Below, in pieces: positions 19,857 through 56,696 of a DNA stretch of 60,066 nt. Under the pieces are notes generated by a model. That model was not told the DNA's origin and made no database searches. It saw nothing but the letters and a program-made list of their open reading frames with translations. Numbering within the stretch: position 1 is the stretch's first letter; each line of letters begins with the position of its first letter. Source of the DNA: a virus (taxonomy: Duplodnaviria; Heunggongvirae; Uroviricota; Caudoviricetes); the IMG/VR virus record IMGVR_UViG_3300037851_000345, positions 1-60,066 of that record; one strand, written 5' to 3'. The translations under genes were made by a program, and so were the position numbers.

Positions 19857-19956
19857 CTAAATAATAGTGTAGGGACAAGGAGTAATTACCCCTTTAGAAA
19901 ACTCCGATTTTTCTAAATTACCTACACTATTTTAATCCATCGGAGGTATTAAAATG
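19857..19956 (+). ncRNA. Repeated structured leader, copy 1 (late promoter + 3-way junction + RBS pseudoknot)
   Basis: P1 AATAGTGTAGG/CCTACACTATT; loop CTCCGAT complementary to ATCGGAG (19939-45). Confidence 0.8.
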
Positions 19957-20160
19957 AATCAAAAATATTTTACAGAAGAAGAACGAAAGGAAGCCCAAAA
20001 ACAATCACGGGAAAAATGGGCGAGTTAAAATTCAAATTATAATGAAGACTATTATCAAAAAATAAAGAAGAAATAAAAAACAGACAAATGAAATATTACA
20101 GGGCAAAGGGGATATTGCCCAGAACCAAATTAACAGAAGAAGAAAGAAAAAATAGAAAAA
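19954..20160 (+). pseudogene. Degenerate endonuclease gene (N-terminus like the HNH at 15978..16586)
   Basis: MNQKYFTEEERKEAQK* versus MYKKYFTEEERRLAK; early stop and frameshifts. Confidence 0.65.
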
Positions 20161-20290
20161 CAAGTATGCAATCTATGTTATGGATGATACAGGAGAAATG
20201 GAAGCCTATAATGCTGCCGATGATTTCATAAAACCCGAAACCGTGATTAAGAAATTCGGATTACAAGACTACATCAAGCCAAGAAACTAG

Positions 20291-20309
20291 GTGTGGTATA
20301 ATTAAGGTA
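20291..20309 (+). promoter_or_regulatory. Extended -10 promoter class GTRTGRTANAATTAARG
   Basis: Recurs at 39205, 40790, 42666, 47954 and 49963. Confidence 0.7.
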
Positions 20310-20311
20310 GA

Positions 20312-20887
20312 ATGAAGTTCAAATTTTCTGAGCCTGAATATACGAAGGAAATGGAAAATTGGTTCGTCAAACGAACCCAAGCCCACATAAAATCGGTACA
20401 GAATTACTGCAAGAAAATCGAAAACTACGACCCTAAGAAATTCAAGGGACTAGTCGAAACCGCACGTTGGCACGATTCTAGCAAGTTCAGGGAACCCGAA
20501 AGAACCCCGTACATCTTTACCACTTGGATGTACAGGTGCAAGAATTTAACCCCCCCTGTTCCCTACACGCCGCCCGAAGAAATGAAGAAGCCGATGGACG
20601 AGGCAACGGCGCACCACATTAAAAACAACTCTCATCATCCTGAGTATTGGACGGATATCACGGCAAACTTGGTAAACCCCGACGCAAGAGACGAAGCCTC
20701 TCAGGTGATTGATGCCACAAAAATGAGTACTTTGGCAATCGGCGAAATGGTGGCTGATTGGTTTTCCGTTGCGAAGGAACGACACAATACTGTTAAATCT
20801 TGGGCCGACAAAAACACAAACAAAAGATGGATGTTCACCCCCGAACAAACCGAATTAATCTACGAACTAATAAATAACATTAGATAG
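20312..20887 (+). CDS. HD-like protein (DUF5662-like)
   Basis: HIKSVQ...HDSSKF...HHIKNNSHHPEYW...EMVADW. Confidence 0.7.
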   Translation: MKFKFSEPEYTKEMENWFVKRTQAHIKSVQNYCKKIENYDPKKFKGLVETARWHDSSKFREPERTPYIFTTWMYRCKNLTPPVPYTPPEEMKKPMDEATAHHIKNNSHHPEYWTDITANLVNPDARDEASQVIDATKMSTLAIGEMVADWFSVAKERHNTVKSWADKNTNKRWMFTPEQTELIYELINNIR

Positions 20888-20899
20888 CGAGGTAAAAAA

Positions 20900-21298
20900 A
20901 TGACCGAACGAGCGAAAATCGCATCGGCACACAGGGATAAAAAACGAATTTTCGCCCCCGAAATTCCCAAACCGAAAAGCCACAACAAGAGTGAAAAGGT
21001 ATGGTATCTTCAGTACCGCTACACGGAAGAAGTGTGGGAAAAAATGATGGCTGAAGATAAAAGGAGAGAGGAAGAATTTGGTAACAAACGCTGGATGCCG
21101 TGGGTTTGGACAGTCGGAAAAAATAATGATTGGGTGAGAGAGGGAAAATATTACGAAAAAGAAGCCGCTGAGGTTGTGATGAATCAGCAATTGAAGCATC
21201 AAAAAGAACACAATTGGGGTTGGAACCACGAGTATCGAATCATCCACAAGGACGATTTACAAAAGGAGAAAAATGAAAAAAAGATGTTGGCAGTGTAA
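20900..21298 (+). CDS. Hypothetical protein
   Basis: ORF with GAGG SD. Confidence 0.65.
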   Translation: MTERAKIASAHRDKKRIFAPEIPKPKSHNKSEKVWYLQYRYTEEVWEKMMAEDKRREEEFGNKRWMPWVWTVGKNNDWVREGKYYEKEAAEVVMNQQLKHQKEHNWGWNHEYRIIHKDDLQKEKNEKKMLAV

Positions 21299-21461
21299 TG
21301 GCTCAAAATTTTGGTGGGAATCTCAATCAAATATTGGTAGTGACCCCTTGCCTGGAGTTTATAAAACTTGTCCAATTTGTCACGGAGAGGGGGTAATTAA
21401 AGAAAGAGAAAATTTAGATAAAACAAAGGAGAAAAATGGACGGAAGAGAAATAAAATTTAG
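21273..21461 (+). CDS. Small DnaJ-type Zn-finger protein
   Basis: CWQCNGS...CPICHGEG. Confidence 0.6.
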   Translation: MKKRCWQCNGSKFWWESQSNIGSDPLPGVYKTCPICHGEGVIKERENLDKTKEKNGRKRNKI

Positions 21462-21891
21462 GTATTGGGATTCAGTGGCAGGGAAAATGTTTGACGATGA
21501 TGCGTTCGAAACCAACAATCTCCCTAGTGATGTCGAAGTGATGCAGTACACAGGCCTTAAAGACAAGAATGGGAAAGAGATTTATGAGGGCGATGTTGTC
21601 AAGACTGATCCTGACCATCCAGCCCTTAGATTGAAATCACCCAACTGGGATAGGGAACGAAAGGAAAAAGACTACAGGCTAGAATACACAAAAGGACAGG
21701 TAATGTGGCAGAATTCAGGGTGGTGGATTGGGGAGTATTATCTAGGAGCAGTAGAGATGAACGAGTTTGCCCTGTGTAATTGTTGCCCATGCGGGTTGGA
21801 AATTATCGGGAACGCTTTTGAAAATCCTGATTTAGTAAAGTTTGTGGAGAAAAATGAAAAAGTACAAAACAGTAACGAAGAAAGTAAGTGA
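21436..21891 (+). CDS. YopX family protein
   Basis: REIKFR.WD...MQYTGLKDKNGKEIYEGDVV...EIIGNAFENPDL. Confidence 0.9.
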   Translation: MDGREIKFRYWDSVAGKMFDDDAFETNNLPSDVEVMQYTGLKDKNGKEIYEGDVVKTDPDHPALRLKSPNWDRERKEKDYRLEYTKGQVMWQNSGWWIGEYYLGAVEMNEFALCNCCPCGLEIIGNAFENPDLVKFVEKNEKVQNSNEESK

Positions 21892-22111
21892 GTTGGATTC
21901 TGTAAAATGCGATTTTTGCGGGAAGATTCGTTCGTGGGATATTTCTCTAGGGAAGACGGAATTTATAGAAGCGCAAAATTTCGTACACATCGAAAAGACG
22001 AATCACTATGGTTCCATCCTTGGAGACACGTTGTTGGATAATGAGAAAATCGAACTAGATATTTGTGAAGAGTGCTTCAAGAAGTATATTCTTGATAAGA
22101 TAAAGGAGTAG
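21854..22111 (+). CDS. Hypothetical Zn-ribbon protein
   Basis: CDFCG...DICEECF. Confidence 0.65.
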   Translation: MKKYKTVTKKVSELDSVKCDFCGKIRSWDISLGKTEFIEAQNFVHIEKTNHYGSILGDTLLDNEKIELDICEECFKKYILDKIKE

Positions 22112-22168
22112 AAAAGTGAAAGAATGAAATTATGGTAGCAAAAAGAAAAGGTATTAAAGGAGAATAAG

Positions 22169-22384
22169 ATGGTAAGTGTTTATTTGAAGGAAAAGGAAAA
22201 TTTTGAGTCGTTGTTGAGAAGGTTTAAAAAGAAGGTGACTGACGAGCGTATCGTTACGAACTATCGTGAGCGCACGTACTTTCTGAAGCCGTCCCAAAAA
22301 AGGAGGCTGTATGAAAAAGAGAAACAAAAGAAAATCAGAAAAGCAAATGCTAGAAGAACAGCAGATGCTATTAAAGAACTTTAA
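22169..22384 (+). CDS. rpsU: 30S ribosomal protein bS21 (phage-encoded)
   Basis: V.LKEKENFESLLRRFKKKV....IV..YRER.YF.KPS.KRR is the bS21 signature. Confidence 0.93.
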   Translation: MVSVYLKEKENFESLLRRFKKKVTDERIVTNYRERTYFLKPSQKRRLYEKEKQKKIRKANARRTADAIKEL

Positions 22385-22613
22385 TTCTCATGAGACAGAC
22401 GGAATCAAGCAACTTATAAAAGAACTGCACAAAATTCGCAAGGTGGACGTTAGCAGGGAAGACTTTCTTACTGTTGAAAAACAAATTGAATACATAACCG
22501 AACAGCAGTTCTACTACGTAGGAGATTTCATCATTGAAATGGGATGGATGTTGGACAGGGGAAAGGTGGAAACTTTTTGGAAATACCTACAATTGGAATT
22601 TAGCCCTAAATAG
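22365..22613 (+). CDS. Hypothetical protein
   Basis: ORF overlapping the 3' end of rpsU; start uncertain. Confidence 0.5.
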   Translation: MLLKNFNSHETDGIKQLIKELHKIRKVDVSREDFLTVEKQIEYITEQQFYYVGDFIIEMGWMLDRGKVETFWKYLQLEFSPK

Positions 22614-22622
22614 GAATGTAAG

Positions 22623-22930
22623 ATGGGTACTATTTATATTACCACTAATTTAATTAATCAAAAACAATATGTGGGCAAACCACAATGAATTTTGAAAAAA
22701 GAAAAAATAGCATACGTATCCAAACAGTTGTCGATGTTTTTATGGAAGTATCAAAAAATATGGAATTAACAATTTCAAATGGATTCATTTTGATTGTCTA
22801 TATGTGGTAACGAAAATCATCAATATGGGAAAACAGGAGAAAATAGTCCTAATTGGGGACGAAAAATACAACAGAAACATTGGAAAAAATGAAACAAGCA
22901 AGATTAAAATATTGGGAAAATAAAAGGAGG
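22623..22930 (+). pseudogene. Degenerate GIY-YIG homing endonuclease
   Basis: MGTIYITTNLINQKQYVGK then frameshifts; remnants such as SIKKYGINNFKW and GENSPNWG; CTAAATA upstream. Confidence 0.8.
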
Positions 22931-22937
22931 ATAGAGA

Positions 22938-23690
22938 ATGGCTGAAAATGATAATTGGACACTAGAAAACCCAGATGATAATATGTGGGGAGAAATGTTT
23001 TCTGATGAATTAGACCGTGAAAGATGGCGTACTAATTTTGGCAAGGATTCAGAAGCGGCTGAAACAGCAAGTTATTGGCGTGATTTAGTGCCTGGAATTG
23101 AACCTTCTGTTGCGGCAATTTATCACAAAGAAGGGTTAACCCCTTATGAAATTGGAGACTATCAACAAGCAGGCATCACCGATTACAAAGAAGTACTTGG
23201 ATGGCACGGAGTTAACGCACAACCCGAAGTGGCTTTGGCCTTCAGGGAAAAAGGCGTAAATTCCGATACTTACGCCAAGTGGTCGAAAATCGGGATACAA
23301 GACCCCGACATGATGATTCGGTTCTCCGAGGACTACAAACTAGACCTGACTCAGTTGGAGAAGTTTGTTCGTCCCCTGCTCGACAGCAAGGCTCTTGAAC
23401 TCGCTGACGTTCCGAAGTGGTTGGAAGCAGGCGTGGTTCTGCAAGAGTTGCAGAGTTGGTTGGAAGCAGGCTTTAAATATCCTTCGTTGGTGAAGGCTTG
23501 GAAGTCGCTGAGAATGAAGCCCGATGATGCGAAGAAGTGGGAAGAGATCGTAATTTATCCCCGTGAAGCCGCAAGGTGGATTGGGGCGGGATATAAGAAC
23601 GTAGAGGACGTGGCAGGCCTGATTAAACAGGGATACCATTCCCCCGAAGAGATTGATGCTGAAGCTGAGAACTTGGTCGTGAAGGGTTAA
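22938..23690 (+). CDS. Hypothetical protein with short W-x-x-x-G helical repeats
   Basis: Repeating KWLEAG/SWLEAG/RWIGAG units; strong SD. Confidence 0.7.
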   Translation: MAENDNWTLENPDDNMWGEMFSDELDRERWRTNFGKDSEAAETASYWRDLVPGIEPSVAAIYHKEGLTPYEIGDYQQAGITDYKEVLGWHGVNAQPEVALAFREKGVNSDTYAKWSKIGIQDPDMMIRFSEDYKLDLTQLEKFVRPLLDSKALELADVPKWLEAGVVLQELQSWLEAGFKYPSLVKAWKSLRMKPDDAKKWEEIVIYPREAARWIGAGYKNVEDVAGLIKQGYHSPEEIDAEAENLVVKG

Positions 23691-23691
23691 A

Positions 23692-24015
23692 ATGGCTTTC
23701 CACGTCAATCAAAAGCGTTTGCTGAAAGAAGAAAAAGAAAACGGTGCAGCAAACGTAACCTATTACGAAGGCAAATGCATGACGTGTGAGCATAGCCCTG
23801 ACAGGGAAAGCAGAGCAGCTTGCCCTAGGGCTGACTTTTTCTCTGTTACTTCCTACATTTCACGGACAGCAAGGGTTAAAACTACCACTCACCTCTGCAA
23901 GAATTGGATACTTTGCTCAGAAATCACATCTTGCTTCAAGAAAAACGCATCTACGGAGACACAAACTGCCCCGCAAAATACTTTTAAAGGTAAATTTCAG
24001 AAAAACAATAAATAA
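23692..24015 (+). CDS. Cys-rich hypothetical protein
   Basis: CMTC...C...C pattern; in-operon ORF. Confidence 0.6.
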   Translation: MAFHVNQKRLLKEEKENGAANVTYYEGKCMTCEHSPDRESRAACPRADFFSVTSYISRTARVKTTTHLCKNWILCSEITSCFKKNASTETQTAPQNTFKGKFQKNNK

Positions 24016-24050
24016 AAGTAGATTCAAAACAGTTTAAAAAGGAGTTCTTG

Positions 24051-25325
24051 ATGAACGAGAAAATTACTATCTTAATTCCGAGTTGCGGAGTCAATTTTGA
24101 AGGCGCTCTCAAACCCTGTATCGAAAGTCTGTTGTTTACTACAGACCTGAAAGTAAAAAATGAACTCTTGTTGATGATGAACGGAATGAAGGACGAGAAA
24201 AAATTCGATACTTTTATCAACCCCCTCATCGATGCGGGTAATCAAATTGACTACGTTTGGTCTAATAAGCCTCTTGGCTACGTGGGTGCGATTAATACAG
24301 GATTGAGACATATTTTTTCACAAAAAGAAACACCTGACTATGTGCTGTTCCTGAACGATGACGTTACCGTACACACAATCGCTTTGTTTGAAGAGATGAA
24401 GGCGAAGTTCCAAGAAGACCCGCTATTGGGTTTGGTCGGCGCAAAGTCCCTACCGTGTCCAATTACGGGCGTGGACTTCCCGTTGGGGTGGTGCGTTCTT
24501 ATCAAGAAGGAAGTGTTCGAAAAAATTGGCTACCTTGATACTGCTTTCGGCATCGGATATGGAGACGATACGGACTTCGCCATCAAAGCTATCAAAGCAG
24601 GCTACCATGTATTTTCCTACGTCAATGGCTACGACAAGAAACTGAAAAAGTCGGTTGGAAATTTTGGCGCGGCGCACTTGGGCGAAGGCACGATGCACTC
24701 AGGCGAGTTTTTCTCGTTGGAAGATTGGGACAAACAGACGGCAAAGAACAGAGGCTTGCTTGCACAGCGATATTGGGAGCGGGTACACGTAATCGTTCCC
24801 GTCTACAAACGCTACGCCAAACTACAAAAGGCCTTGAACGGATTGCGGAACCAATGGTACACCAACCTTGTTGTTCACGTTGTTTCTGACGGGGACGATA
24901 ACGGGGTAAAGGCAATTGTCGAAACGTACAAGGCGGCGTGGGGACAACAGCAATTTGCGCCTGAGATTGAGTACAGTTTCGTGGAACCTCCAGAAAGAGG
25001 ATACGGGGGACTTCCTCGTAAAAGTATTTTAGATTCATTAGAAAGTGCCAAAAATGAATGGGTTTGTTTCGTAGATAGTGATAATAGTGTCAACCCCGAC
25101 TACATTTTAAAACTATGGCAGGCTACTTTTTTGAAACCAGAAATAGGAATGGCTATCTGTAAAATTAATCATATTGAGCAAGGAAATCGAGTAATTCCAG
25201 AGCCTGAATTTTGGGAAAAAATAGAATGGTCTCATATTGATAGTTTAAACGCTTTTGTACGTCTTGATATTGCTAAAAAACACGCAGATAAGTGGATACA
25301 CGATAAAAAAAGAACAATAATTTAA
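24051..25325 (+). CDS. Glycosyltransferase with two GT2 domains (second one C-terminally truncated)
   Basis: ITILIP...LFLNDD...GYLD..FG.GYGDDTD; VHVIVPVYKR...CFVDSDN...HIDSL. Confidence 0.9.
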   Translation: MNEKITILIPSCGVNFEGALKPCIESLLFTTDLKVKNELLLMMNGMKDEKKFDTFINPLIDAGNQIDYVWSNKPLGYVGAINTGLRHIFSQKETPDYVLFLNDDVTVHTIALFEEMKAKFQEDPLLGLVGAKSLPCPITGVDFPLGWCVLIKKEVFEKIGYLDTAFGIGYGDDTDFAIKAIKAGYHVFSYVNGYDKKLKKSVGNFGAAHLGEGTMHSGEFFSLEDWDKQTAKNRGLLAQRYWERVHVIVPVYKRYAKLQKALNGLRNQWYTNLVVHVVSDGDDNGVKAIVETYKAAWGQQQFAPEIEYSFVEPPERGYGGLPRKSILDSLESAKNEWVCFVDSDNSVNPDYILKLWQATFLKPEIGMAICKINHIEQGNRVIPEPEFWEKIEWSHIDSLNAFVRLDIAKKHADKWIHDKKRTII

Positions 25326-25335
25326 TATGATAACA

Positions 25336-25439
25336 CTAAATAATAGTGAGAGACAGGGTTCGCTACCTTTTCAAAATGCTTATCCCACTTTGAATCATCT
25401 CACTATTTTAAATTTGACTTGGATAAGGGGTTGAAGATG
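25336..25439 (+). ncRNA. Repeated structured leader, copy 2
   Basis: P1 AATAGTGAGA/TCTCACTATT; loop CTTATCC complementary to GGATAAG (25421-27). Confidence 0.8.
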
Positions 25440-25553
25440 AATCAAAAAGTTGGGACGATTTATGTGGCTACCAATCTAATCAATGAGAAGCAATATGTTG
25501 GACAGACAACTCAAAAATTGAACGACAGGAAAATATTTAGAGGTAAAAAATGA
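25437..25553 (+). pseudogene. 38-aa GIY-YIG N-terminal stub, stop overlaps the next ATG
   Basis: MNQKVGTIYVATNLINEKQYVGQTTQKLNDRKIFRGKK*. Confidence 0.8.
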
Positions 25554-28500
25554 TAGAAAAAAATAATCAATCACCAGTAATAAGTGGAATTGTTACACAT
25601 GATTATCAGTTTATTAAATCTTGTGCCGAAGAAACAAAAGTTGAATGGGTGGACGAAGTGCTTGGTTCACACGGACAGGAAATGAACGTCCTTGTCGTGG
25701 CTGTCTGCTACAACGAGGAAAAGATGATTCCGTTCTTCTTACGGCACTACGAGAAGATTGCTGAGAAAATTTTGGTCTTTGATGGCGGCAGTACCGACAA
25801 AAGTTTGGAACTTTTGAAGGCAAACCCGAAAGTCTCAATCGTTTCAGTCCCGAACAGCAAGATGAACAACTTGGAACTGATGAAAATTCGCAACGAGGGA
25901 TGGAAGCCGTACCGACACGACTACGATTGGGTCATCGTGTGCGACATCGATGAGTTCTTGTGGCACAAGGATTTGAAGGGGAAACTAGAAGAGTTCCGCA
26001 AGGCAAGGATCACAGTTCCTGCCGTTACAGGCTACCAAATGACGGCAGAAGCCTTCCCTGACAACAACCCGCTGACACAGATTTACGACCACTTCAACGA
26101 GGGATACCCTGACCCCGAACACCTGAACAAGTCGATGATTTTTAACCCGAACTGCGTGGACATCAGGTACGAGATGGGTTGCCACAAGGCCAATCCAATC
26201 GGAGTAGTCAGTTACTCATCCGAATCGCTCTACCTTTTCCACTACAAGTACGTGGGCTACGAAGAGTTCATCGGACGCAACAAGATGTTGGCGGCAAGAG
26301 TTAGCGATGAGGACAAGAAGAATAATTGGGCATTCCACTACGCAAGAGATGCACAGATGTCCTTTAAGGACTTCAGAGAAATCGTGCAGAAGGGTGCGCC
26401 AATAATCAACGACTCTCCTGTTATCAACCCGTTACTTTCACGCAAGGATTTAAAGGCACAAAACGCTGGCGTGTTCAGGGAGATTATTGAACTAAACGAG
26501 TACCGTGTTTCCAAGAAAGACTTCACAAACAAGAACGTGATTGACGTAGGTGCGAATATCGGCGTGTTTACCCTGCTTGCGAACGAGTATGGGGCAGAAA
26601 GAATTGTCGCAGTCGAACCAAATACGCCGACCTTGGAAGTCCTGAAGAAGAACACGGCGGGTCGGGGAATAATGGTACTCGACAAGGCCGCTGGAAAAAA
26701 GGGCGGCGAGCATGTACAGATGGTGATGCGTCCTGAGTTCTGTGCGACAGACGGCAGAATATTCTCGCAGAGTGCGCCGACAGGGATTGAAACCATCGGC
26801 CTAGACCACTTGGTTTCGCTCGTAGATGACGGCAAGCCGATTCTGCTGAAGGTGGACTGCGAGGGTGCGGAATACGACCTGTTCTACGGAGCAAGTCTGA
26901 AGGCGTTGAGTAAGATTCAGACGATTGTGATGGAAGCCCACGAAAATATCTACCGCACGGAAGGACAGACGGGGCTTATCGACAAGTTACGCCATTACCT
27001 GACGAGTTTGGGATTTGAGGAAAAATATTTTTACTCTGTAGGCGAACAGGTGAAGATGATCCGCTTCGACAGGGTGAATCCGATTGAAGACAATATCACC
27101 GTTGTGATTTCGGCATTCAACCGCCCTGAACTTTTGAAAGACCAAGTAGAAGCCATCCGAAAGCAGACGCTTCAGCCGAAGGAAATTATCGTGTGGCTCA
27201 CGAAGTCGAAGCACTACGAGAACGAAAAGTGGGTCGAAACAAAATTCGAAATTCCTGAAGGAGTTACGCTCGTTTCAACGGAAAAAGACCTGACGCTTCC
27301 CGCACGATTTGCCGCGACGCTATTTGCCAAGACAAACTACGTGCTATTGCTTGATGACGATGTGTTTCCTGCCGAGGGCTACTTGGAAGAGACTCTGAAA
27401 GTGTCGAAGCGTGAGAACGCGGTCGTGTCAGCCTACGGGATGCTCTACAACAGGCGTGGGTTGAATGATGGCGAGGCAGACCGCTACGGAGACCACGGCA
27501 CGAAAACGAATGACCCTATCGAAGTCGATGTGGGTGGACACAGTTGGTTCGGCAAGAAGGAGTGGTTCTCACTCTTCTTTCGTGAGCCTGCACTCTCTCC
27601 GACTGAGGGAGACGATTTACACTTTTCCTACATCCTGAAGAAGTACACCGACATCAGGACGATTGTTTCTGCGATGCCCGAAGACAACAAGTTCATTTGG
27701 TCGAACACCAATTCCGATGCGGGGATGGGATTCAGGGCTTTACACGCACGGAAGTGGGACGATGTGAAAATATGGACTGACCCGACCAAGACGAGTTGGG
27801 GAGTCGAAGACAAGGACTACTTGGAAAAGAACCTAAAGGCCTTCCAAGCAAGACGGCAACAAATGATGAACCGCTACCGAGCCGAAAAGAAATGGGAACC
27901 TCTACAGGCACAAAAGGTGGTGGAAGAACAGAAAATCGAAGTTACGGTAGATATCGCTACCAAGAATCGCTACTTTTCCACGTTGCCGACAACACTGTTG
28001 TCCGTGATGATGCAGACGTACCCGATTAAGAAAATCATCATCGTGGATGATTCCGACCCTGAGAAAGACGGCAAGATGAAAGACCTACGCCAAAACCCGA
28101 TGTACCAATACCTGTTCAGTATGATTTCCAAGAAGGGAATCGAATGGGAAGTAGTTTTCGGCGTTCACAAGGGACAACACCACAGCCACCAAATCGTGAT
28201 GGACAGGGCAAAGACCGATTTCATTTGGCGTTTGGACGATGACGAGTACGCCGAGCCGAATGTGTTGGAAGAGTTGGTCAGTCAAATGAACAGCGGTGTA
28301 GGACTTGTAGCAGGACTAGTTCTAGACCCGATACAATCTCAGCAAGCACCGCCGAACTACTTCAACAACAACAGGCTTGCCGATATCAACACGAGGGAAA
28401 ACACCCAGTGGCTGATGCAACCGAAGGGTAAGACGATTGAAGTCGAACACCTCTACTCGTCCTTCTTGTACCGCAAGGTCGAGGACATCAAGTACTGCTT

Positions 28501-29005: not shown

Positions 29006-29259
29006 TAACAATACCAAAAGAAGAGTTTGTGAGTTGTGCTAAACGATTCATCGAAGACCCGACTCTACAGAAAATAGAAACACACGAATTCGTTTTTATC
29101 AGGCCTAACGGAGTTATCACGGTCAAGTTTAAACAATTTAAAGGGCTTTCGGGCTACTTTACGATGGAGGAATTTAACAACGAAGAGACGTTGATGACAA
29201 TTTTAAAAACACTAGAAACAGAAATGAACAAGAGAGAAACAAGTGAAAACACTAAATAA
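29002..29259 (+). CDS. Hypothetical protein
   Basis: ATGA overlap with the upstream gene; GAGGAG SD. Confidence 0.6.
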   Translation: MITIPKEEFVSCAKRFIEDPTLQKIETHEFVFIRPNGVITVKFKQFKGLSGYFTMEEFNNEETLMTILKTLETEMNKRETSENTK

Positions 29260-29351
29260 TAGTGAAGGACAGGAGATGAAACCCTTTTTAAGATGCTCCT
29301 ATCATCTTAAATTATTTCACTACTATTTCAGTTCATAGGAGGAACTAAATG
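29252..29351 (+). ncRNA. Repeated structured leader, copy 3
   Basis: P1 TAGTGAAG/TTTCACTA; P3 TTTAAGATG/CATCTTAAA; loop CTCCTAT complementary to ATAGGAG (29335-41). Confidence 0.8.
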
Positions 29352-46780: not shown

Positions 46781-46791
46781 TTTACACCGCC

Positions 46792-48310: not shown

Positions 48311-48311
48311 A

Positions 48312-48488
48312 ATGAGTGATGAAAAAATCGAATTTAAAATTGGAGACGTTGTAGTTTTGAACAGCGGTGGTCCAGACATGAGTATCGTTTCTTTTGAGGA
48401 AGGGACTAAACTTCTTTGTTCTTGGGTATCGGATAATGGAAATTTTTCTGCTGTCTTTGATAGCAGATGTTTAACGAAGAAAAGATAG
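48312..48488 (+). CDS. YodC/DUF2158 family small protein
   Basis: FKIGDVVVLNSGGPDM...C.W...F...L (manual translation, 58 aa). Confidence 0.8.
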   Translation: MSDEKIEFKIGDVVVLNSGGPDMSIVSFEEGTKLLCSWVSDNGNFSAVFDSRCLTKKR

Positions 48489-48499
48489 GAGGGGTTTAA

Positions 48500-48712
48500 A
48501 TGAGCATAACCAAGGAAGAATTTTACGACAAGATTGATAAAATTCGTGAGATTGTGGATGGTTTGGGAGATAGTAATAATTACCTTAATGTGGACGAAGT
48601 ACTTCTTCTGTTAAATGAATTGAGGTCTGATGCTGAACAGGTGCTTCAAGATGAATACGACTTGGGGTTGAATCGTGGGTGGAACCATATTGATGAAGAA
48701 GAGCAGTTTTAA
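48500..48712 (+). CDS. Hypothetical protein
   Basis: Strong SD. Confidence 0.6.
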   Translation: MSITKEEFYDKIDKIREIVDGLGDSNNYLNVDEVLLLLNELRSDAEQVLQDEYDLGLNRGWNHIDEEEQF

Positions 48713-49158
48713 TGAGTAAAGAAGGACTTAGTTCTCAATTGCGTAATTTTTATGCCAAGACCAAGCGCCAGGTTAACCTAGGCGAAAGTGAGTTTGTCCT
48801 AGAGAATATCTTTGGTATTGAGAACATCAAAACGCTCGTGAACGAACAGTTCGAAGAGGTCTATCAAAACTTTTTCGTAACGCAAAAAATCGATACGACA
48901 AAGCGGGAACTGTTTTCCTATGCCGACATCTACGACTTCATCAACACCCTATTAAATATTGACCCAGACGACCTGATTATTTTTTTTACCCACAATGAAA
49001 TACTTGAATATACCTTGTCGTTGATGAACGTGTTAAACAGAGCCTTCAACAATTGGATTCAGAACAGGAAGAGTGGCTTTAGAAAAGGAACTAGGATTTT
49101 CTTGGAAATGGATTCCAAGGGGGTTCACCTGTACTTGAAGCCTGAGATAAAGACGTAA
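48712..49158 (+). CDS. Hypothetical protein
   Basis: TAATG coupling. Confidence 0.65.
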   Translation: MSKEGLSSQLRNFYAKTKRQVNLGESEFVLENIFGIENIKTLVNEQFEEVYQNFFVTQKIDTTKRELFSYADIYDFINTLLNIDPDDLIIFFTHNEILEYTLSLMNVLNRAFNNWIQNRKSGFRKGTRIFLEMDSKGVHLYLKPEIKT

Positions 49159-49394
49159 TGGGTTATAGGGTTATAATGCCTCCTAGTCCCGATGACGGCA
49201 GACCATCTACCGATGATGTATATGCCCAATTCAGTGACTATGTCGAGTTGAACGGCATGAGCCAACTTCTGAAAGATGCGAAAATGATTCTAAAAATATA
49301 CCCCGCTGTAAGGATGTTGCTGAAAAGAAATTATCCGCAAAACCAAGACCAAATTACGCTGTGGGAAAAATTACACGGGTATGATGTTACGTGA
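49158..49394 (+). CDS. Hypothetical protein
   Basis: TAATG coupling. Confidence 0.6.
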   Translation: MGYRVIMPPSPDDGRPSTDDVYAQFSDYVELNGMSQLLKDAKMILKIYPAVRMLLKRNYPQNQDQITLWEKLHGYDVT

Positions 49395-49407
49395 TAAGGA
49401 GAGTAAA

Positions 49408-49839
49408 ATGAAAATAGTTATCAATAAATGCTACGGCGGCTTTGGGCTGTCTTTTGCGGCTCAGAAGGAGTACTTGAAAAGGAAAGGCAAGCAAGCCTTC
49501 TTCTACGAACAAACTAAGTACAAACATAGGGACGGCAAGGACGAGTACACACGACTTGAAAAGATAAACAAAGAAACCTCATCGATAAGTACTTTTTGTT
49601 CTACAAAAGACCTAGGTAAAACCACAAAGAAATGGCCTAATCAAAAGGATAATTTTTACTACGGTGATATCGACAGAACTGACCCTGACCTAGTTGCAAT
49701 CATTGAGAAATTGGGCGATAAGGCAAACGGCCTGCTGGCTAAACTTAAAATTGTCGATATTCCTGACGGTGTAGGATATTCGATTGACAATTACGATGGC
49801 GTAGAGAGTATTCACGAAGCGCACGAAGTTTGGGGATAA
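49408..49839 (+). CDS. Conserved phage hypothetical protein
   Basis: KIVINKCYGGFGLS...RTDPDLV...LKIVDIPD...YDGVE. Confidence 0.75.
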   Translation: MKIVINKCYGGFGLSFAAQKEYLKRKGKQAFFYEQTKYKHRDGKDEYTRLEKINKETSSISTFCSTKDLGKTTKKWPNQKDNFYYGDIDRTDPDLVAIIEKLGDKANGLLAKLKIVDIPDGVGYSIDNYDGVESIHEAHEVWG

Positions 49840-49980
49840 ATTTAATGACACCACGTGAAGTTTTATTCGGTTGGGGAGTTTTTCTTATTGCTTATTTTGT
49901 TTCTTACTTTGTTGTTTGGCTAAGAATGTTATACAACAAAAAGAGGAAGAAATTGTAACCAAGTATGGTATAATTAAAGA

Positions 49981-50250
49981 ATGGGAAAGAAAAAAATAAT
50001 TCTGTTAGATAAAAAGCAACGAAGGTTGCCTAACTATAATAACGAATACACCGATGATGTCGAAAAGTATTGCGATGCGTGGCATAAACTCGCTGCCCCA
50101 ATAGAAAAATTTCTTGGTTTAGAATTGTCGGCTTTTGACCCTGATTTCAAGTTCATAGACGCCAAGGAAAAATACAAATTGATTGTTGAGCTGCCGCTGT
50201 GGTTTGTGGAGAAATTCAACGAAGCAATAAAAAAGGTAAAGAAGAAATGA
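49981..50250 (+). CDS. Hypothetical protein (probably leaderless)
   Basis: ATG 6 nt after TATAAT. Confidence 0.65.
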
Positions 50251-50525
50251 GAAAGGATATCAAGATAACTTACGATGGTGCTTATCCAAACTTATGTTCA
50301 GGAACACTAATCGTTAAAATCGGTGAACAAGAATGGACTTTTCCTGACTACTCCTTGTCGAGCGGCGGCTCTATTTCGTTCGATGAAGATTGGCAAGAAA
50401 ATGTTACAAGTGGCGAATGGTCTATTTCTGAGTGGCCTAAAGATTTTCCCGAAGATTTGAAAGAAGAAGTTTTGGACGCAATCAACGCAGAAATTCCTTG
50501 GGGATGTTGCGGCGGGTGTGTCTAA
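50247..50525 (+). CDS. Conserved phage hypothetical protein
   Basis: [11 protein letters not shown]...SGG...WGCCGGCV. Confidence 0.7.
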
Positions 50526-50537
50526 GGAGTAATTAGT

Positions 50538-51026
50538 TTGAAAAGTAAAGTAGCAAAGGATAGGTTTTATATTGAGTGTTCGTGTACTAGCCCCGACCAT
50601 CTTCTCGTGTTCGATTTTTGGGACTTCGGCAAGAAAGTCAATTACACGGAAATGTCGGCACAGTTCACAAGTCCCTATCACGATTCCTTTTGGAAACGGT
50701 TGGGATATTTTTTCAAGTACCTGTTCAACAAGGAGAGGTACTTAGGTACAAGCGATACCATCGTCTTCAACAAGAAAAATCTTGAACAGTTGAAAGAGGT
50801 CGTTGCGGAAATGGAACGGATACTCGATAAAGAGGAAAAGAAAAAGGAAGCAACCAAAACAAAAATACAAGATAAAAAAGAATCAGATTTTTTAGAGGCA
50901 CAAATAGGAACTTTGAACCAATTATTAGAACAGGCCAAAGAATTTAACGACCAAGTAGGTCTTATTCAGATACCAGAACAAATTAAAGAGGCCGAAGAAA
51001 AACTAAAAATTCTAAAACAAAAATAG
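50538..51026 (+). CDS. Hypothetical protein
   Basis: TTG start with AGGAG SD; CSC..DH motif. Confidence 0.65.
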   Translation: MKSKVAKDRFYIECSCTSPDHLLVFDFWDFGKKVNYTEMSAQFTSPYHDSFWKRLGYFFKYLFNKERYLGTSDTIVFNKKNLEQLKEVVAEMERILDKEEKKKEATKTKIQDKKESDFLEAQIGTLNQLLEQAKEFNDQVGLIQIPEQIKEAEEKLKILKQK

Positions 51027-51062
51027 TACTGAGGAAAAGTCAATAAAAAGGAGGAAAAATTT

Positions 51063-51953
51063 ATGGACATCAACAGTTTAGTAAGTAAGGAAGACATCAA
51101 GAAGGACCAGGAGAAGAAAGCTGCAGGGGGAGAAATGAGCGACAGCCGTTTTTGGCGCATCCCCGATGGTAAGTCAACCATCAGGCTTCTGCCACGGTTG
51201 GAGAACAAGATTCCGTACAAGACGGTATTTTCTCACCGCTACAACAGTAACGGCGAGAAGATTTTCGCAACTTGTATGCAGACCTTCGGCAAGAAGGACT
51301 GCCCAATCTGCAAGCAATCTTGGGCGATGTGGAACAAGGAAAACAAGGAAGTTAAGGACACGGGCTATCAAGTTCGCAAGTCCCCGCGCTTTCTGTACAA
51401 CTGCTACATCGTGAATGACCCTGAGAAGCCTGAGAACAATGGGACTATCAAAATCATTTCTGTCGGCAAGAAATTGCAGGATTTGATTTTGGAGAGTTTC
51501 AATTCGGAAGACTTGGGGAACGTGATTTTCGATGCCATCAACGGCGTTGATTTCGAAATCAACCGCAAGAAATCGGGAGACAACCCGAATTTTCCCGACT
51601 ACTCTTCATCCCGCTTCGTTTTCAGGAAGTACGCCGTGGTGAAGAATTGGGACGCTATCAAGGACAAACTCATCAACATCGATGAACTCATCAAGGAAGA
51701 GACCCCTGAAGAACTGAAGGAAAAATTCAAGTTCTTGGGGTTCGACTCCACCAGAACCACGCCCACGACTACGACGACAGCATCGAAGACTCAGCCCAAG
51801 CCAAAGGCAGAGGAGAAGAACCAGAAGCCTGAAGAGGAAGACATCAACATCGATGAATTGGAAGGTGACAACGGCGAGACCGATGAAGCAATTGACAAGG
51901 GGATTGATGATATCGAAGACATCGACATCGAAGATGAACTAGAGAAACTGTAA
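51063..51953 (+). CDS. gp32: Single-stranded DNA-binding protein
   Basis: DSRFW...IRLLP...C...G..DCPIC...VNDPEKPENNG...DYSSSRF; acidic tail. Confidence 0.93.
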   Translation: MDINSLVSKEDIKKDQEKKAAGGEMSDSRFWRIPDGKSTIRLLPRLENKIPYKTVFSHRYNSNGEKIFATCMQTFGKKDCPICKQSWAMWNKENKEVKDTGYQVRKSPRFLYNCYIVNDPEKPENNGTIKIISVGKKLQDLILESFNSEDLGNVIFDAINGVDFEINRKKSGDNPNFPDYSSSRFVFRKYAVVKNWDAIKDKLINIDELIKEETPEELKEKFKFLGFDSTRTTPTTTTTASKTQPKPKAEEKNQKPEEEDINIDELEGDNGETDEAIDKGIDDIEDIDIEDELEKL

Positions 51954-52096
51954 AAACGATTCGGCTTTGGATTACTGAGCCGTTGCCACGTAGTATCAAG
52001 TGCTAGCCACGAAAAGTACGGTGGGTAAGTATCAGTAATTGGGTGTTCGGCTCCGTTTCCCAAATAAAACGGGCATTTTATTTAAGGAGAACCAAA

Positions 52097-52336
52097 ATGA
52101 AACAGACAGCGAATTCATTGATTGAGTGGGGCAAACAGATTCACATTTCAGAGGAGATTTTTCGTACTTACGTCTTCCCTAACAAGGAAGAAGTCAGGAT
52201 CGATAAACCCCTGTACCTGATTATCTCTGACAACGGACACAGGGTGCTAGACCAAAACTACATTGCCCACTACATTCCCTACGGATGGATTCATCTTTAT
52301 TGGGAGAATTCCGATAAGAAGGAAGTATCACTTTAA
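52097..52336 (+). CDS. Conserved small phage protein
   Basis: ISEEIFRTYVFP...GHRVLD...HYIPYGWIHLYW; AGGAG SD. Confidence 0.7.
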   Translation: MKQTANSLIEWGKQIHISEEIFRTYVFPNKEEVRIDKPLYLIISDNGHRVLDQNYIAHYIPYGWIHLYWENSDKKEVSL

Positions 52337-52366
52337 TCATCAGGAGTCAAAGGGAGAACAGAAATA

Positions 52367-53401
52367 ATGTTAAAGAACGGAAGTGATAAACTGAAGAAAT
52401 TGGAAGAGAAGACCAACGGCAAGATGAAGGAAACGATCGCCGATTTGGTCAAGACATTAGAAGGCAACAACGCAGACGAAGTAGAAACAAAGGCTTGGAT
52501 TTCAACAGGAATTAAGGGTCTGAATTTCCTTTTGTCGGGAGACCCTGAGAAGGGTATACCCGTAGGTAAGGCCATTATTGTTGCAGGGGAACAGCAATCG
52601 GGCAAGTCGCTTTTGGGTGCACGTATTGCTGCTCACGCACAGAAGCAGGGATATATCCCGCTGTGGTTGGATTCGGAAAGCGCAAGCGACAAGCGATTCC
52701 TCGCCCGTCAAGGGTTGGACGTGAATGGCGTTGTCCATCGAGAGTTGGATACAGTAGAGGAGTTTCAATCAATCATCGTCAAGGCTTTGAACAAGGCCAA
52801 GGAGAAGGGGTTGAAACTATTCATCGTTCTTGACTCGTTGGGGGCATTGTCGGGGGCAAAGGAAATGGATGATGCCGACGCCGACAAAATGACACAGGAC
52901 ATGGGACTGAGAGCGAAGAATATCCGTACGGCTTTCAAGACCATCATCCACAAATTGAGAGATACAGATAGTTGCTTTTTTTGCATCAATCACCAATACA
53001 TTTCCCCAGGGTTTATCCCGAAGAAGGAAATGGGTGGAGGAATGGCGGCGTGGTACTTGGGGCAAATCGTCATTTACCTTACGAAGTTAAAAGGTGAGGA
53101 CGGAATATTCACACGAGTCAAGATGAAGTCGAAAAAGAACCGTGAGTTCATCGAAGGCCGAACGATTGAATTTGAGATTAACTTCCGTACCGGCATCGAT
53201 CCGAACGCAGGAATGGTTGACCTGTTCGAAGAGTTCGGAGTGATTAAGAAAAAGGGTGCATGGTATAATATTGACGGCGATGACAAGAGTTATCGTGAAG
53301 AAAATATTTTGACTGACGAAATACTTATGAAAAGATTACTTGTTATTCTGAAAGAGAAGGCAAAGGATTATTCATACAGCACCTTTACAATAAGCGAGTA
53401 A
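52367..53401 (+). CDS. uvsX: RecA-like recombinase
   Basis: ISTG..LN..LSG, GEQQSGKS Walker A, DSE, VLDSLG, INH.Y, KKGAWY. Confidence 0.95.
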   Translation: MLKNGSDKLKKLEEKTNGKMKETIADLVKTLEGNNADEVETKAWISTGIKGLNFLLSGDPEKGIPVGKAIIVAGEQQSGKSLLGARIAAHAQKQGYIPLWLDSESASDKRFLARQGLDVNGVVHRELDTVEEFQSIIVKALNKAKEKGLKLFIVLDSLGALSGAKEMDDADADKMTQDMGLRAKNIRTAFKTIIHKLRDTDSCFFCINHQYISPGFIPKKEMGGGMAAWYLGQIVIYLTKLKGEDGIFTRVKMKSKKNREFIEGRTIEFEINFRTGIDPNAGMVDLFEEFGVIKKKGAWYNIDGDDKSYREENILTDEILMKRLLVILKEKAKDYSYSTFTISE

Positions 53402-53402
53402 C

Positions 53403-54782
53403 ATGGATAACTACTCTCAAATATTCCTAAAAACGTTCATTTCGTTCAGCGAGTTCCGACAGTTGTTTCTGTCGAATTGGCAGTTCGATTATTTTGATAC
53501 AACCGAAGAAAGAATCCTGTACAGGATACTGAGAGCCTTTTGGGTACAAGCCCACAAGATTCCGACCAAGAAAGACGTACTGCTAGAGGTTACGACCAAA
53601 AGCAAGTACGAAAAAATAAGAGAGAAACTCGTTGAAGAGATTGAGGCTGTCTACGGCCTCGACCTCTCCGAGTATACCGAGTCGTTCATCCGAGACCAAT
53701 TCATTGACATCCTTCGCAAGAAGAAACTACAATCCACAGTCAAGAAGATTGTCGATGAAGTGAACAAGTCGGGCAAGGTGGACGAGTCGGCAATCAGGAA
53801 CGATATTGTGAAGTCGTTGGAAATCTCCGATGACCTTCAGGATATGGGTATCGACTATTTTGATACCGACTTGCCAGCCCGTATGAAAATCCTACAGGAA
53901 ATGCAAGTACAACATTTCAGCACAGGCTTCAGCGCAGACTTGGATGATGTGCTTAGGTTGAAACGTAAGACGGTAGTGGCAGTCTCCGCTCAGTTGGGTG
54001 TGGGTAAGTCCCTGTTCCTGAACAATCTAGCCGTCAATATTTCCCAATCGGGAGCCAACGTGCTGTACTTGTCGTTGGAAATGGACGCTTTTGATATCTC
54101 CAAGCGTTTAGACCGCATCGCCCTAGGATTCCACGAGGACGAGTACTTCAAGTCGGTAGACTTGGTTGACCAAAGAATGACAGAGACCAAGAAGGAATTT
54201 CCGAAGCATGGAAAACTATTCATCCGCAGTTACTCACCCCGAAGCCTGACCTCAATGCAAATCAGGGCGTTGCTAGAGCAGTACCGAATGAAGAACATTG
54301 GCATCGACCTGATTCTTGTGGATTACTTAACCCTGATGAGGCCCAACAAGGTAAGGAAAGATGACAGTATGTACATGAGGGGTAAGGATATCGCAGAGGA
54401 GTTGCAAGCCGTTGCCAAGGACGAACGTTGTCTTATTTTCACAGCCCTTCAGGTTAAATCCGAAGCCTACGGCAAAAATAAGCAAGGGTCGGAACTTATC
54501 TCTGAATCTCTCGCAATTCCGCAAATTTTGGATACTCTCATAAATATGGTAGAAATAATTATTGATGAGGGAGACCAAAAATTTTTCGTAATAAACTTCG
54601 AAAAGACAAGAGACTCAAAAAAGACAAACAGACGCATCTACCTAAAACTAAAAGACAATCTGCGCATCGTGGACACGACAGACGAGGAGAAAAAGAAATT
54701 GGAAGGCATCATAAACAAGAAGAAAGGGTTAACCCAACAGCAATCGAAACAGCAGTTTCAGACGGACTTGGAAGTGTTGTAA
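53403..54782 (+). CDS. gp41: DnaB-like replicative helicase
   Basis: AQLGVGKSLFL, YLSLEM, LVDYL, TALQ, ISES. Confidence 0.93.
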   Translation: MDNYSQIFLKTFISFSEFRQLFLSNWQFDYFDTTEERILYRILRAFWVQAHKIPTKKDVLLEVTTKSKYEKIREKLVEEIEAVYGLDLSEYTESFIRDQFIDILRKKKLQSTVKKIVDEVNKSGKVDESAIRNDIVKSLEISDDLQDMGIDYFDTDLPARMKILQEMQVQHFSTGFSADLDDVLRLKRKTVVAVSAQLGVGKSLFLNNLAVNISQSGANVLYLSLEMDAFDISKRLDRIALGFHEDEYFKSVDLVDQRMTETKKEFPKHGKLFIRSYSPRSLTSMQIRALLEQYRMKNIGIDLILVDYLTLMRPNKVRKDDSMYMRGKDIAEELQAVAKDERCLIFTALQVKSEAYGKNKQGSELISESLAIPQILDTLINMVEIIIDEGDQKFFVINFEKTRDSKKTNRRIYLKLKDNLRIVDTTDEEKKKLEGIINKKKGLTQQQSKQQFQTDLEVL

Positions 54783-55156
54783 TGGCAAAGAAGACGCCCT
54801 ACGTAACGAATGCTGAAATCCTGAACGAATTTGAAAAGTATTGGGATACAGGTAAAGTTTCAAACCGAATGGCTGAAATGATTTATCTGATAGCCTGTAA
54901 AATAGCTAATAGTAGGAACTTCTATGGATATCCCTTTAAAGAGGATATGATTCAGGAAGGAACGTTTCATGCTGTCAATAAAGGCATTTCAGGCTTTAAG
55001 AAGGGGAAGAAGAACCCGTTCTGCTACCTGTCAGTAATCATTCAGTTTAAGTACATCGAATACATCAAGAAAGAGAAGAGGAATATCGCTATCAAGGAAA
55101 TGGTTACGGAGAAATTAAAAGGCGATATTTTGGACGATATCAACAAGAGAAAGTAA
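54782..55156 (+). CDS. gp55: Late-transcription sigma factor
   Basis: YVTN.E...IA..IA...NFYGY.FKEDMIQEG...NPFCY...I..IKKEK. Confidence 0.9.
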   Translation: MAKKTPYVTNAEILNEFEKYWDTGKVSNRMAEMIYLIACKIANSRNFYGYPFKEDMIQEGTFHAVNKGISGFKKGKKNPFCYLSVIIQFKYIEYIKKEKRNIAIKEMVTEKLKGDILDDINKRK

Positions 55157-55157
55157 G

Positions 55158-55568
55158 ATGTTATTTGGAAGGAAAATATCGAGAAAAGAAGCCCTAGAAA
55201 TTTCCCGTAAAACTTTAGAAACTGCGGAAACAGAAAGAAAAAAGTTGGCCCAGGAAGACGCCGACCGAGGCATAAAGCCTTGTCAGGCATTTCTGAAATA
55301 TCCCAAAGATAAATGGCGGTTGATGTGGGTTCTTGACCGCGCAAGAACCGAACATCAAATGAGTGAGGTTTGTTTAGCAAAAGATTTTTGTGAAAATCCC
55401 TGTGGTAGATGGCAAGCCGAAAGGGTTGCCAATATCAAAAGGCTTGCAGGAATTTATCCTGCTGATAAGAATGTGGAAAACCTCAGACAGATGTTGGATA
55501 AAATAAGGAATATGAGTAATTACGAATACGAAGCGTTATACAACTCCTTGCCAAAAGAGGAAGAATGA
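55158..55568 (+). CDS. Hypothetical protein
   Basis: In-operon ORF. Confidence 0.6.
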   Translation: MLFGRKISRKEALEISRKTLETAETERKKLAQEDADRGIKPCQAFLKYPKDKWRLMWVLDRARTEHQMSEVCLAKDFCENPCGRWQAERVANIKRLAGIYPADKNVENLRQMLDKIRNMSNYEYEALYNSLPKEEE

Positions 55569-56587
55569 ATCTGTTAGTGTTTGCAGACTTGCACCTAGGG
55601 AAGAAATTAAGCAACGCCTATTTTCTAGACCTTGACTTGCAAGTGATTGACAGGATTTGCGAGGAAGTACAGCGGAGTTGCATCGATAAGATTATTTTCC
55701 TAGGCGATTTCTTTCACAACCGAAGTGAATCCACGCCGAGAGCGATGGGGGTGGCTAGGGAAATCTTGGACAAGTTGGATTGTCTAGGCATCCCTGTCAT
55801 TATGATTATCGGCAACCACGACCACTACTACAACAATAAGAAGGACGGCAACTACTACAGGATTTTCAAAGACCTGTTCCGCAACATCACCTTCGTGGAA
55901 TCGATGGGGAGAGACGCTGATTTGCTCTACGTGGGTTGGATGCAGACCCCTGAAGAAGAGTCGGCATACAAAGAACTATCCAAAAAATGCAAGTGGATTT
56001 TCGGACACTTTGAGTTCAAGGGGGCAGAAATGTCTGAGTACTACAAGACCACGGCAGGGTTAGAGAACGACAACCTCAATTCCTACATTTTCTCAGGACA
56101 CATCCATCAGCGTTCACAGCAGGGCAAACTACACTACATCGGTTCCCCGTACCCGCAGACGTGGCTAGCCCGTAATAGACACGACTACGGTTACTGCTTG
56201 GTGGATACCGATACGGAAGAAATTAAGTTCGTCGACTTGGGGTTGTACCATTTCAACGAGTATAAGTTACAAAATCTTTTAATGCGGATAGCAATGAACA
56301 AGGAATCGGTTAAGAAGGAAATGTTAAACAGCGAAACGAAGATAATAGTAGATGTTCCTTTAAATGAAAAACAATTTTCAGATATCAAAATATATTTGAA
56401 TACTTTTAAACCAAAAAATCTTTTAGTTGAAAAAGAAGAATTAATAATGAATTCCAATACACCATACACCAATTTACAGTTAAATACCCCAATGGAATTT
56501 ATTCAAGATTATATTTCTGGAATGAAAATAGAATCTTTACAAAAAAATAGAATTCTTGAAAAGGTAAAAAGAATTTTGGGTTCATAA
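55565..56587 (+). CDS. gp47: Mre11/SbcD-like recombination nuclease
   Basis: ADLHLG, LGDFF, GNHD, GHFE, SGHIH, YIGSP. Confidence 0.93.
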   Translation: MNLLVFADLHLGKKLSNAYFLDLDLQVIDRICEEVQRSCIDKIIFLGDFFHNRSESTPRAMGVAREILDKLDCLGIPVIMIIGNHDHYYNNKKDGNYYRIFKDLFRNITFVESMGRDADLLYVGWMQTPEEESAYKELSKKCKWIFGHFEFKGAEMSEYYKTTAGLENDNLNSYIFSGHIHQRSQQGKLHYIGSPYPQTWLARNRHDYGYCLVDTDTEEIKFVDLGLYHFNEYKLQNLLMRIAMNKESVKKEMLNSETKIIVDVPLNEKQFSDIKIYLNTFKPKNLLVEKEELIMNSNTPYTNLQLNTPMEFIQDYISGMKIESLQKNRILEKVKRILGS

Positions 56588-56595
56588 TGAAAATA

Positions 56596-56696
56596 ATAAA
56601 TAATAGTGAGAGACAGGGTTCGCCACCTTTTCGAAATGCTTGTACCATTTCGGATTATCTCACTAAAATTTTGACTTGTACAAGGAGTTGAAGATG
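56596..56696 (+). ncRNA. Repeated structured leader, copy 4
   Basis: P1 TAGTGAGA/TCTCACTA; loop CTTGTAC complementary to GTACAAG (56678-84). Confidence 0.8.

Follow-up and report, generated by a model that had tools for sequence, protein, structure and literature searches.

Background

Homing endonucleases need little, late expression in order to spread without harming the phage. In the T4 family, the homing endonuclease genes (HEGs) I-TevI, I-TevII, I-TevIII, segB and Aeh1 mobE have simple, gene-specific hairpins over the ribosome-binding site (RBS) and a late promoter immediately upstream, whose start removes the strand that pairs with the Shine-Dalgarno (SD) sequence; RBS-sequestering structures and late promoters of this kind regulate T4 I-TevI, segB and mobE (PMC2988022). 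The window considered here (the whole stretch of DNA analysed, 60,066 nucleotides of the IMG/VR virus record IMGVR_UViG_3300037851_000345) contains four copies of a folded mRNA leader of approximately 90 nucleotides (nt), which precedes HEGs or their remnants and lies behind a late-type promoter. As in the T4-family hairpins, a cis RNA structure covers the RBS of HEGs in a T4-like phage, the late promoter is immediately upstream, and read-through RNA is predicted to be the more repressed form. Unlike those hairpins, the leader is a conserved, multicopy three-way junction with a kissing loop, and it is common to four nuclease groups instead of being specific to one gene. The RBS is paired within the local mRNA structure, as the target of the loop of helix P3 (L3) and by the 3' strand of a fourth helix (P4), but the late transcript would not be free of the RBS-pairing strand, because the predicted start keeps L3 and loses only the outer part of helix P1.

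A second described system resembles the leader in topology. The cobalamin riboswitch, with its L5-L13 contact, likewise has a junction domain that P1 closes, then a short linker of single-stranded RNA and a hairpin with the RBS in its loop; a helix formed by that loop and the loop of one junction arm occludes the RBS (PMC5028336). This kissing loop, which joins an arm of the aptamer to the hairpin presenting the RBS, has its counterpart here in the complementarity of L3 to the loop of P4 (L4), together with P4 itself. The cobalamin riboswitch, however, has a B12 box in a four-way junction, and its kissing loop is imperfect and depends on the ligand (PMC5028336), whereas here the junction is three-way, the contact is a perfect helix of 6-7 base pairs (bp), and neither a four-way core with a B12 box nor a match to RF00174 or its clan was found. 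The PeSL cassettes of T4-type phages (PMC2839356, PMC4122927) are also repeated modules of promoter and structure that border variable genes and are shuffled as modules, but in them an early promoter is joined to a stem-loop resembling a terminator, and they have been discussed as recombination substrates. The leader, in contrast, has the late-type box TAAATA in place of an early sigma-70-type promoter, its structure targets the RBS, and it has no terminator stem-loop, there being no conserved U-tract after P1. HEARO, the omega RNA of IscB (RF02033), is a large guide RNA of a transposon-encoded HNH nuclease, and so is also a structured RNA beside an HNH-type nuclease gene, whereas the present element is a 5' untranslated region acting on the RBS and has no match in Rfam.

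Results and discussion

Structure of the leader

The order of parts is the same in all four window copies: a TAAATA box, P1 starting with TAGTG, GAC, a short P2, a 9-bp P3 with a loop of 7 nt, TYA, and the 3' strand of P1. About 10 nt past that strand, a 7-mer complements the P3 loop exactly, and an ATG follows 7-9 nt further (4/4), although the loop and its 7-mer are different in each copy (CTCCGAT/ATCGGAG, CTTATCC/GGATAAG, CTCCTAT/ATAGGAG and CTTGTAC/GTACAAG in copies 1 to 4). This anatomy and the sites of the four copies had been described in an earlier sequence-only reading of the window, with which re-reading of the sequence agrees (Table 1).

P1, P2 and P3 form a three-way junction with a GAC of invariant type and a UYA joining strand. 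In a family alignment of 58 elements, P3 is 99.4% paired, with compensatory changes at eight of its nine pairs, and P1 has five covarying pairs with double changes. All five measures of the whole structure exceeded those of every one of 500 shuffles, and collapsed once the partners were slid. RNAalifold predicts P1, P2 and P3 independently, and the minimum free energy (MFE) fold of the single sequence is the three-way junction in copies 1, 2, 4 and 5 of the five copies folded, copy 3 having a different helix in place of P2 and P3; the single-sequence folds also show a 3' hairpin with the 7-mer as its loop. GAC, which is kept in 57 of the 58 elements and in distant copies, and the near-invariant UYA are conserved unpaired core nucleotides such as riboswitches in general possess. 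The first pair of P3, U-A, is near-invariant to invariant as well. The apex of P2 is freely variable, and its types are common to several nuclease groups. Pairs of the G.U type are frequent and scores on the minus strand are much weaker, in keeping with an RNA of plus sense.

A perfect Watson-Crick complement of 6-7 nt to the P3 loop is present downstream in 52 of 55 scorable elements, which have 44 distinct loops among them; in the control, where the loop of one element was compared with the tail of another, the mean was 3.4 nt, and 7 nt was reached in only 4 of 2,928 comparisons. Thus the covariation claimed in the sequence-only reading is genuine, in P3, in P1 and between the loop and its target. 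In 54 of 56 elements the target, which ends 7-11 nt 5' of the start codon, shares 2-5 nt with the SD, namely in its 5' half; the P3 loop begins with CU or CC, a mimic of the anti-SD. The energy of the loop-loop duplex averages -7.9 kcal/mol. The proposal that the leader is structured, acts in cis and pairs its P3 loop with the region of the SD is supported.

The same reading had taken the AT-rich stretch before the 7-mer to be a linker. The stretch is there, but its last 8 nt form the 5' strand of P4, pairing with the 8 nt after the 6-7-mer, so that the 3' strand takes in the SD's 3' half as well as the spacer that leads to the start codon. Of the cells of P4, 87% are paired, whereas the figure is 72% over 1000 shuffles, none of which exceeds 76%, and 60% once the strands are shifted by one position; the excess is also seen with Watson-Crick pairs alone, and several columns exchange A-U for G-C. 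These counts were made on flanks anchored at the loop, the model-based alignment being out of register 3' of P1, which is why RNAalifold on that alignment did not recover P4. In MFE folds of the 3' part alone, the 6-7-mer is a hairpin loop in 41 of 55 cases, and both distant copies of the element also have P4. The helix is a weak one with many G.U pairs; its existence is supported but not proven. Since the 7-mer is the loop of P4, its contact with the P3 loop is a kissing loop, L3-L4, and in the modelled fold the whole RBS, from the SD to the start codon, is inside L4 and P4.

Extent of the family

The complete virus genome in IMG/VR has 222,974 bp, terminal repeats and a G+C content of 41%, and its first 60 kb make up the window. 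A covariance-model search of the kind that the sequence-only reading had proposed was carried out on this genome and on matches of a pattern scan of IMG/VR, with a model built from the copies. It brought the total in the genome to seven, with additional copies at 95972, 121420 and 171001, each of which has its own complementary loop pair. In IMG/VR, the pattern scan and model searches gave 94 matches representing 58 distinct elements, up to 11 of them on one 89-kb fragment; a related large contig (IMGVR 3300014204_000109) was covered in part by the element search. The loops within each genome examined are all distinct (11/11, 10/10, 7/7 and 5/5). Selection for distinct loops within a genome was considered and set aside, as the distinctness is not clearly beyond what paralogy leads one to expect.

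Among 16 distant T4-like contigs searched with the model, 14 had no copy and one, whose gp47 is only 27% identical, had two divergent copies. P1, GAC, P2, P3 and P4 are all kept in these two, and their loop contacts, of 6 or 10 bp, are unrelated in sequence. In a 543-kb IMG/VR phage (1501-1604, minus strand), a three-way junction with the same GAC and AUUA joining strands begins right after TAAATA and precedes a 93-aa open reading frame (ORF) that is not a nuclease; a convincing loop contact was not found there, and this junction was left unclassified.

Searches for known relatives of the leader were negative. The whole window gave no match to Rfam 15 at gathering thresholds, and permissive scans of copies 1, 4 and 5 gave chance-level matches only (E 0.2-10, 12-19 bits), in keeping with the failure of the sequence-only reading to recognise a known RNA family. 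Neither the leader nor an 8-kb stretch has a DNA match among GenBank phages, and a search for tRNA and tmRNA found none. In 596 Gb of prokaryote genomes the pattern of promoter plus P1 occurs at 33 places, none of which fits the covariance model; these are therefore chance matches and serve as a control. The cores of the hammerhead and pistol RNAs and of the purine and glutamine riboswitches are ruled out by the junction sequences and by the lack of Rfam matches, and an intrinsic terminator after P1 is ruled out because no U-tract is conserved there. A literature search found the known T4 hairpins only and no account of this leader. Judged by comparison of its copies, the element represents a new RNA family that is real, abundant and supported by phylogeny. 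Occlusion of the RBS in phage HEG mRNAs is known; what is new is the architecture, the modular use of many copies and the mobility of the cassette.

Promoter and predicted transcription start

TAAATA stands directly 5' of 57 of the 58 elements, the exception being a decaying copy with TGAATA, and the box is integral to the element. The extended motif (A/C)(A/C)TAAATA(A/G)TAGT is also found before genes that have no leader. Four genes of this genome (58516, 91451, 132657 and 153611) have an ATG exactly 5 nt after the box, leaving no room for an SD, which places the start at the sixth nucleotide. The sequence at these boxes is TAAATAATAGTATG or TAAATAATAATATG (58516-58529, 91451, 132657 and 153611), and the genes are candidates for leaderless late mRNAs. 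Late promoters of T4 are located roughly one turn of the helix 5' of the start (PMC2988020). By analogy with T4 and from the leaderless-looking genes, late transcription is predicted to start at the sixth nucleotide after TAAATA. A gene of zinc-finger HNH type (genome 150698-150730) has the same promoter motif followed by a short unstructured leader, so that not every HEG of this phage uses the element.

In 56 of 57 leaders the sixth nucleotide is the G of TAGTG, inside the 5' strand of P1. A start at this conserved G would leave the cassette's own transcript without the outer 4 nt (UAGU) of that strand, and in a nested thermodynamic model the pair probability of inner P1 falls from 0.90 to 0.48 if the RNA begins there. 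L3 is about 35 nt downstream of the predicted start, and only the outer 4 nt of P1 would be lost. The sequence-only reading had the whole structure downstream of the late promoter, which does not hold for a start inside P1. Such a start makes the element more like the T4 paradigm (PMC2988022), except that the partner of the SD would be retained and the scaffold alone weakened. The genes upstream have the same orientation, with no more than about 10-15 nt between their ends and the box, and read-through RNA with a full P1 is therefore expected.

Nuclease genes and cassette mobility

The 46 full-length ORFs behind elements comprise 20 of the GIY-YIG group, 18 EndoVII-like HNH, seven DUF7487/DUF559 and one zinc-finger HNH. 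An association with unrelated nuclease families had thus been correctly perceived in the sequence-only reading, but the number of groups is four, not two. Its assignments within the window are also amended: the ORF of copy 4 clusters with GIY-YIG genes, and the stub of copy 1 is a remnant of EndoVII/HNH type. In this genome, two of the seven downstream ORFs are full length (those of copy 4 and of the copy at 171001) and the others are stubs of 15-50 codons. Copy 7 decays alongside its HEG, the box having become TGAATA and one G-C pair of P3 having become G.U.

The closest relative, with a gp47 that is 87% identical, has neither leader nor HEG after gp47, the site of copy 4 here, and has a cassette after the primase gene instead. 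Leaders with the loop CTTATCC and a GIY-YIG gene occupy three different neighbouring junctions in different genomes. Three relatives examined have no cassette at the junction of copy 2, indicating that the copy 2 stub is a recent relic; a role of the copy 2 and copy 3 stubs as ancient regulators of glycosyltransferase genes was rejected for the same reason. Presence and absence together with shifted positions among close relatives indicate that promoter, leader and HEG move as one unit, a self-contained mobile cassette.

Proposed mechanism and alternative explanations

On balance, the leader is probably a cis-acting translational throttle or lock, which would act most strongly on read-through RNA. 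In this model, the P1/P2/P3 junction is followed, after 1-6 nt, by the small hairpin P4, whose loop of 6-7 nt would hold the 5' half of the SD and the nucleotides preceding it, while its 3' strand would hold the remaining SD and the spacer. Pairing of L3 with the whole of L4 would lock the entire RBS in a P3-kissing-P4 stack and keep translation of the nuclease low. Given a loop-loop helix without mismatches, the default is probably the closed state; in the cobalamin (env8) riboswitch, a perfectly complementary kissing loop gave ligand-independent closure (PMC5028336). Read-through RNA, with a full P1 of 8-9 bp, would be the most tightly closed, and transcripts started by the cassette's own late promoter at the conserved G would have a P1 of 4-5 bp and a looser scaffold, permitting limited late translation. 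The helices, the loop-loop complementarity, its overlap with the SD, the linkage to promoter and HEG and the mobility are observed features on which the throttle builds; the start site, the repression and the difference between the two RNA forms are what we infer from them.

Several points weigh against a throttle of this kind. With L3 kept in the late RNA, as predicted, shortening of P1 may fail to open the structure at all. The start site is drawn solely from the leaderless-looking genes and the analogy with T4. The statistics for P4 carry a high background, both of its strands being compositionally biased, and a P4 of 8-9 bp, a loop helix of 7 bp, a 9-bp P3 and a full P1 may together be sterically tight with a linker of only 1-6 nt, in which case the outer pairs of P4 may belong to an alternative state. 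Finally, the conservation of GAC and UYA goes beyond the needs of a passive scaffold and hints at a bound factor or, more generally, at a specific contact, either tertiary or intermolecular.

That last point leads to a responsive switch, in which the junction senses a small molecule or a protein of the phage or host, binding stabilises or breaks the kissing loop, and the HEG cassettes form a regulon. GAC persists even in the distant copies, and UYA and the first pair of P3 hardly vary while the helices around them have been changed by many compensatory substitutions. That four unrelated nuclease groups use one leader type speaks for a common factor rather than for each nuclease regulating itself, and the arrangement of junction, P1, short linker and RBS hairpin kissing an aptamer loop matches the regulatory domain of the cobalamin riboswitch. 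However, no alternative, mutually exclusive fold was found in silico, the apex of P2 varies freely, Rfam has no match, there is no candidate ligand or protein, and the loop-loop helix is perfect, a condition that abolishes ligand dependence in the cobalamin system. A switch is a tentative alternative, possible but unlikely. Slightly less likely again is its most specific form, that the junction would be an aptamer for a phage protein or a metabolite of the infection state, which would switch on all HEG cassettes together, with orthogonal loop addresses.

If P1 began at +1, the leader might instead be a stabiliser or processing signal of the mRNA 5' end that protects the late transcript, with the pairing to the SD being secondary. 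The predicted +1 is indeed the first paired nucleotide of the shortened P1, and leaders with intact loop complementarity have been retained before dead HEG stubs that lead into downstream genes. Such a role is improbable, since the best-supported contact, which is also the most variable yet compensated, lies on the SD, where a stabiliser needs none, and since copy 7 is decaying in both its box and its P3 along with its HEG.

The inverted repeats could also act as DNA, as a recognition or operator site of the nuclease or as a recombination hotspot; I-TevI binds an operator overlapping its own late promoter (PMC2988022), and the cassettes are located at variable intergenic sites. The G.U pairs and the strand asymmetry fit RNA, however, the element is common to four unrelated nuclease groups, and DNA binding would not explain nested helices with a loop-loop contact exactly on the SD. 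Moreover, the allele that lacks the HEG has no leader at all, indicating that the leader is not the nuclease target, and a DNA-level role is very unlikely. Least credible is action in trans, with the exposed loop of the junction as an antisense to matching RBS hairpins of co-infecting genomes or other cassettes: loops are only ever distinct within a genome and the same loop recurs between genomes, but paralogues are expected to differ more than orthologues anyway, and the cis partner, always 30-40 nt away, would outcompete a partner in trans.

Source genome and features of the window

Judged from its proteins, among them a tail sheath with 27-32% identity to those of isolates, the virus is a very distant T4-like myovirus of an uncultivated clade. 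Its genome encodes UvsX-, gp41-, gp47- and primase-like proteins, and the window contains a gp55-like late sigma factor (Table 1). This protein has only 124 aa and is directly followed by a 136-aa ORF with no PHROG match (54782-55568); the alignment of T4 gp55 spans the frames of both ORFs, with two stops.

Table 1. Positions of the leader copies, the downstream nuclease genes and the late sigma factor in the window
Feature	Position	Strand	Remarks
TAAATA late-type box, copy 1	19858..19863	+	predicted start, G at 19869
Leader copy 1	19864..19956	+	sequence reading, folding, covariance model
Junction helices, copy 1	P1 19865-19873/19921-19929; GAC 19874-19876; P3 19893-19901/19909-19917	+	
Loop contact, copy 1	L3 19902-19908; P4 19931-19938/19946-19953; L4 (7-mer) 19939-19945; ATG 19954	+	
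EndoVII-like (HNH superfamily) HEG remnant, 24 codons	19954..20028	+	MNQKYFTEEERK start common to full-length genes of relatives
Box and leader, copy 2	25337..25439	+	L3 25379-25385; L4 25421-25427; ATG 25437
Helices, copy 2	P3 25370-25378/25386-25394; P4 25413-25420/25428-25435	+	one A.C mismatch in P3
GIY-YIG stub, 38 codons	25437..25553	+	TGA overlaps ATG of 1151-aa glycosyltransferase/methyltransferase gene (ATGA)
Box and leader, copy 3	29253..29351	+	L3 29296-29302; L4 29335-29341; ATG 29349
Helices, copy 3	P3 29287-29295/29303-29311; P4 29327-29334/29342-29349	+	
GIY-YIG stub, 33 codons	29349..29450	+	ATGA overlap at end with next gene (29447)
gp55-like late sigma factor	54782-55156	+	context for reading TAAATA as a T4-type late promoter
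Box and leader, copy 4	56597..56696	+	top-scoring member; L3 56639-56645; L4 56678-56684; ATG 56694
Helices, copy 4	P3 56630-56638/56646-56654; P4 56670-56677/56685-56692	+	
GIY-YIG-group HEG, 176 aa	56694..57224	+	I-HmuI NUMOD-like domain; TGA overlaps ATG of next gene

Three further stretches resemble parts of the element. At 22545-22660, another GIY-YIG remnant (MGTIYITTNLIN...) is preceded by a stretch (GGACAGGGG...) that resembles a degenerate leader but lacks a TAAATA box; this stretch matches the model weakly (E about 1) and has not kept P3 or the loop contact. At 59283-59328, a promoter (TAAATAATAGTGAGAC...) is followed by GACAGGAG, which serves as the SD of the next gene, resembling a leader collapsed by deletion; in the closest relative, the 5' region of the orthologue differs (6130-6260 of the relative). 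Beyond the window, a partial copy (genome 123948-124010) has the box, the 5' strand of P1, GAC and P2 and is divergent thereafter, with no 3' strand of P1 and no loop contact.

Conclusions

To our knowledge, control of HEGs has hitherto been known only through ad hoc hairpins. The leader is a portable RNA module with near-textbook covariation, common to four nuclease groups and travelling as a cassette of promoter, leader and gene. It offers a clean natural case of a kissing-loop lock on the RBS outside riboswitches and a marker with which to find free-standing HEG cassettes in metagenomic phages, and its loop pairs, at least 44 of them naturally orthogonal, are possible parts for translational control. 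If the junction binds a factor, coordinated control by the phage of its selfish genes would be revealed, and if it should be an aptamer, these phages would have a dedicated regulon of selfish genes in which each cassette has its own loop address.

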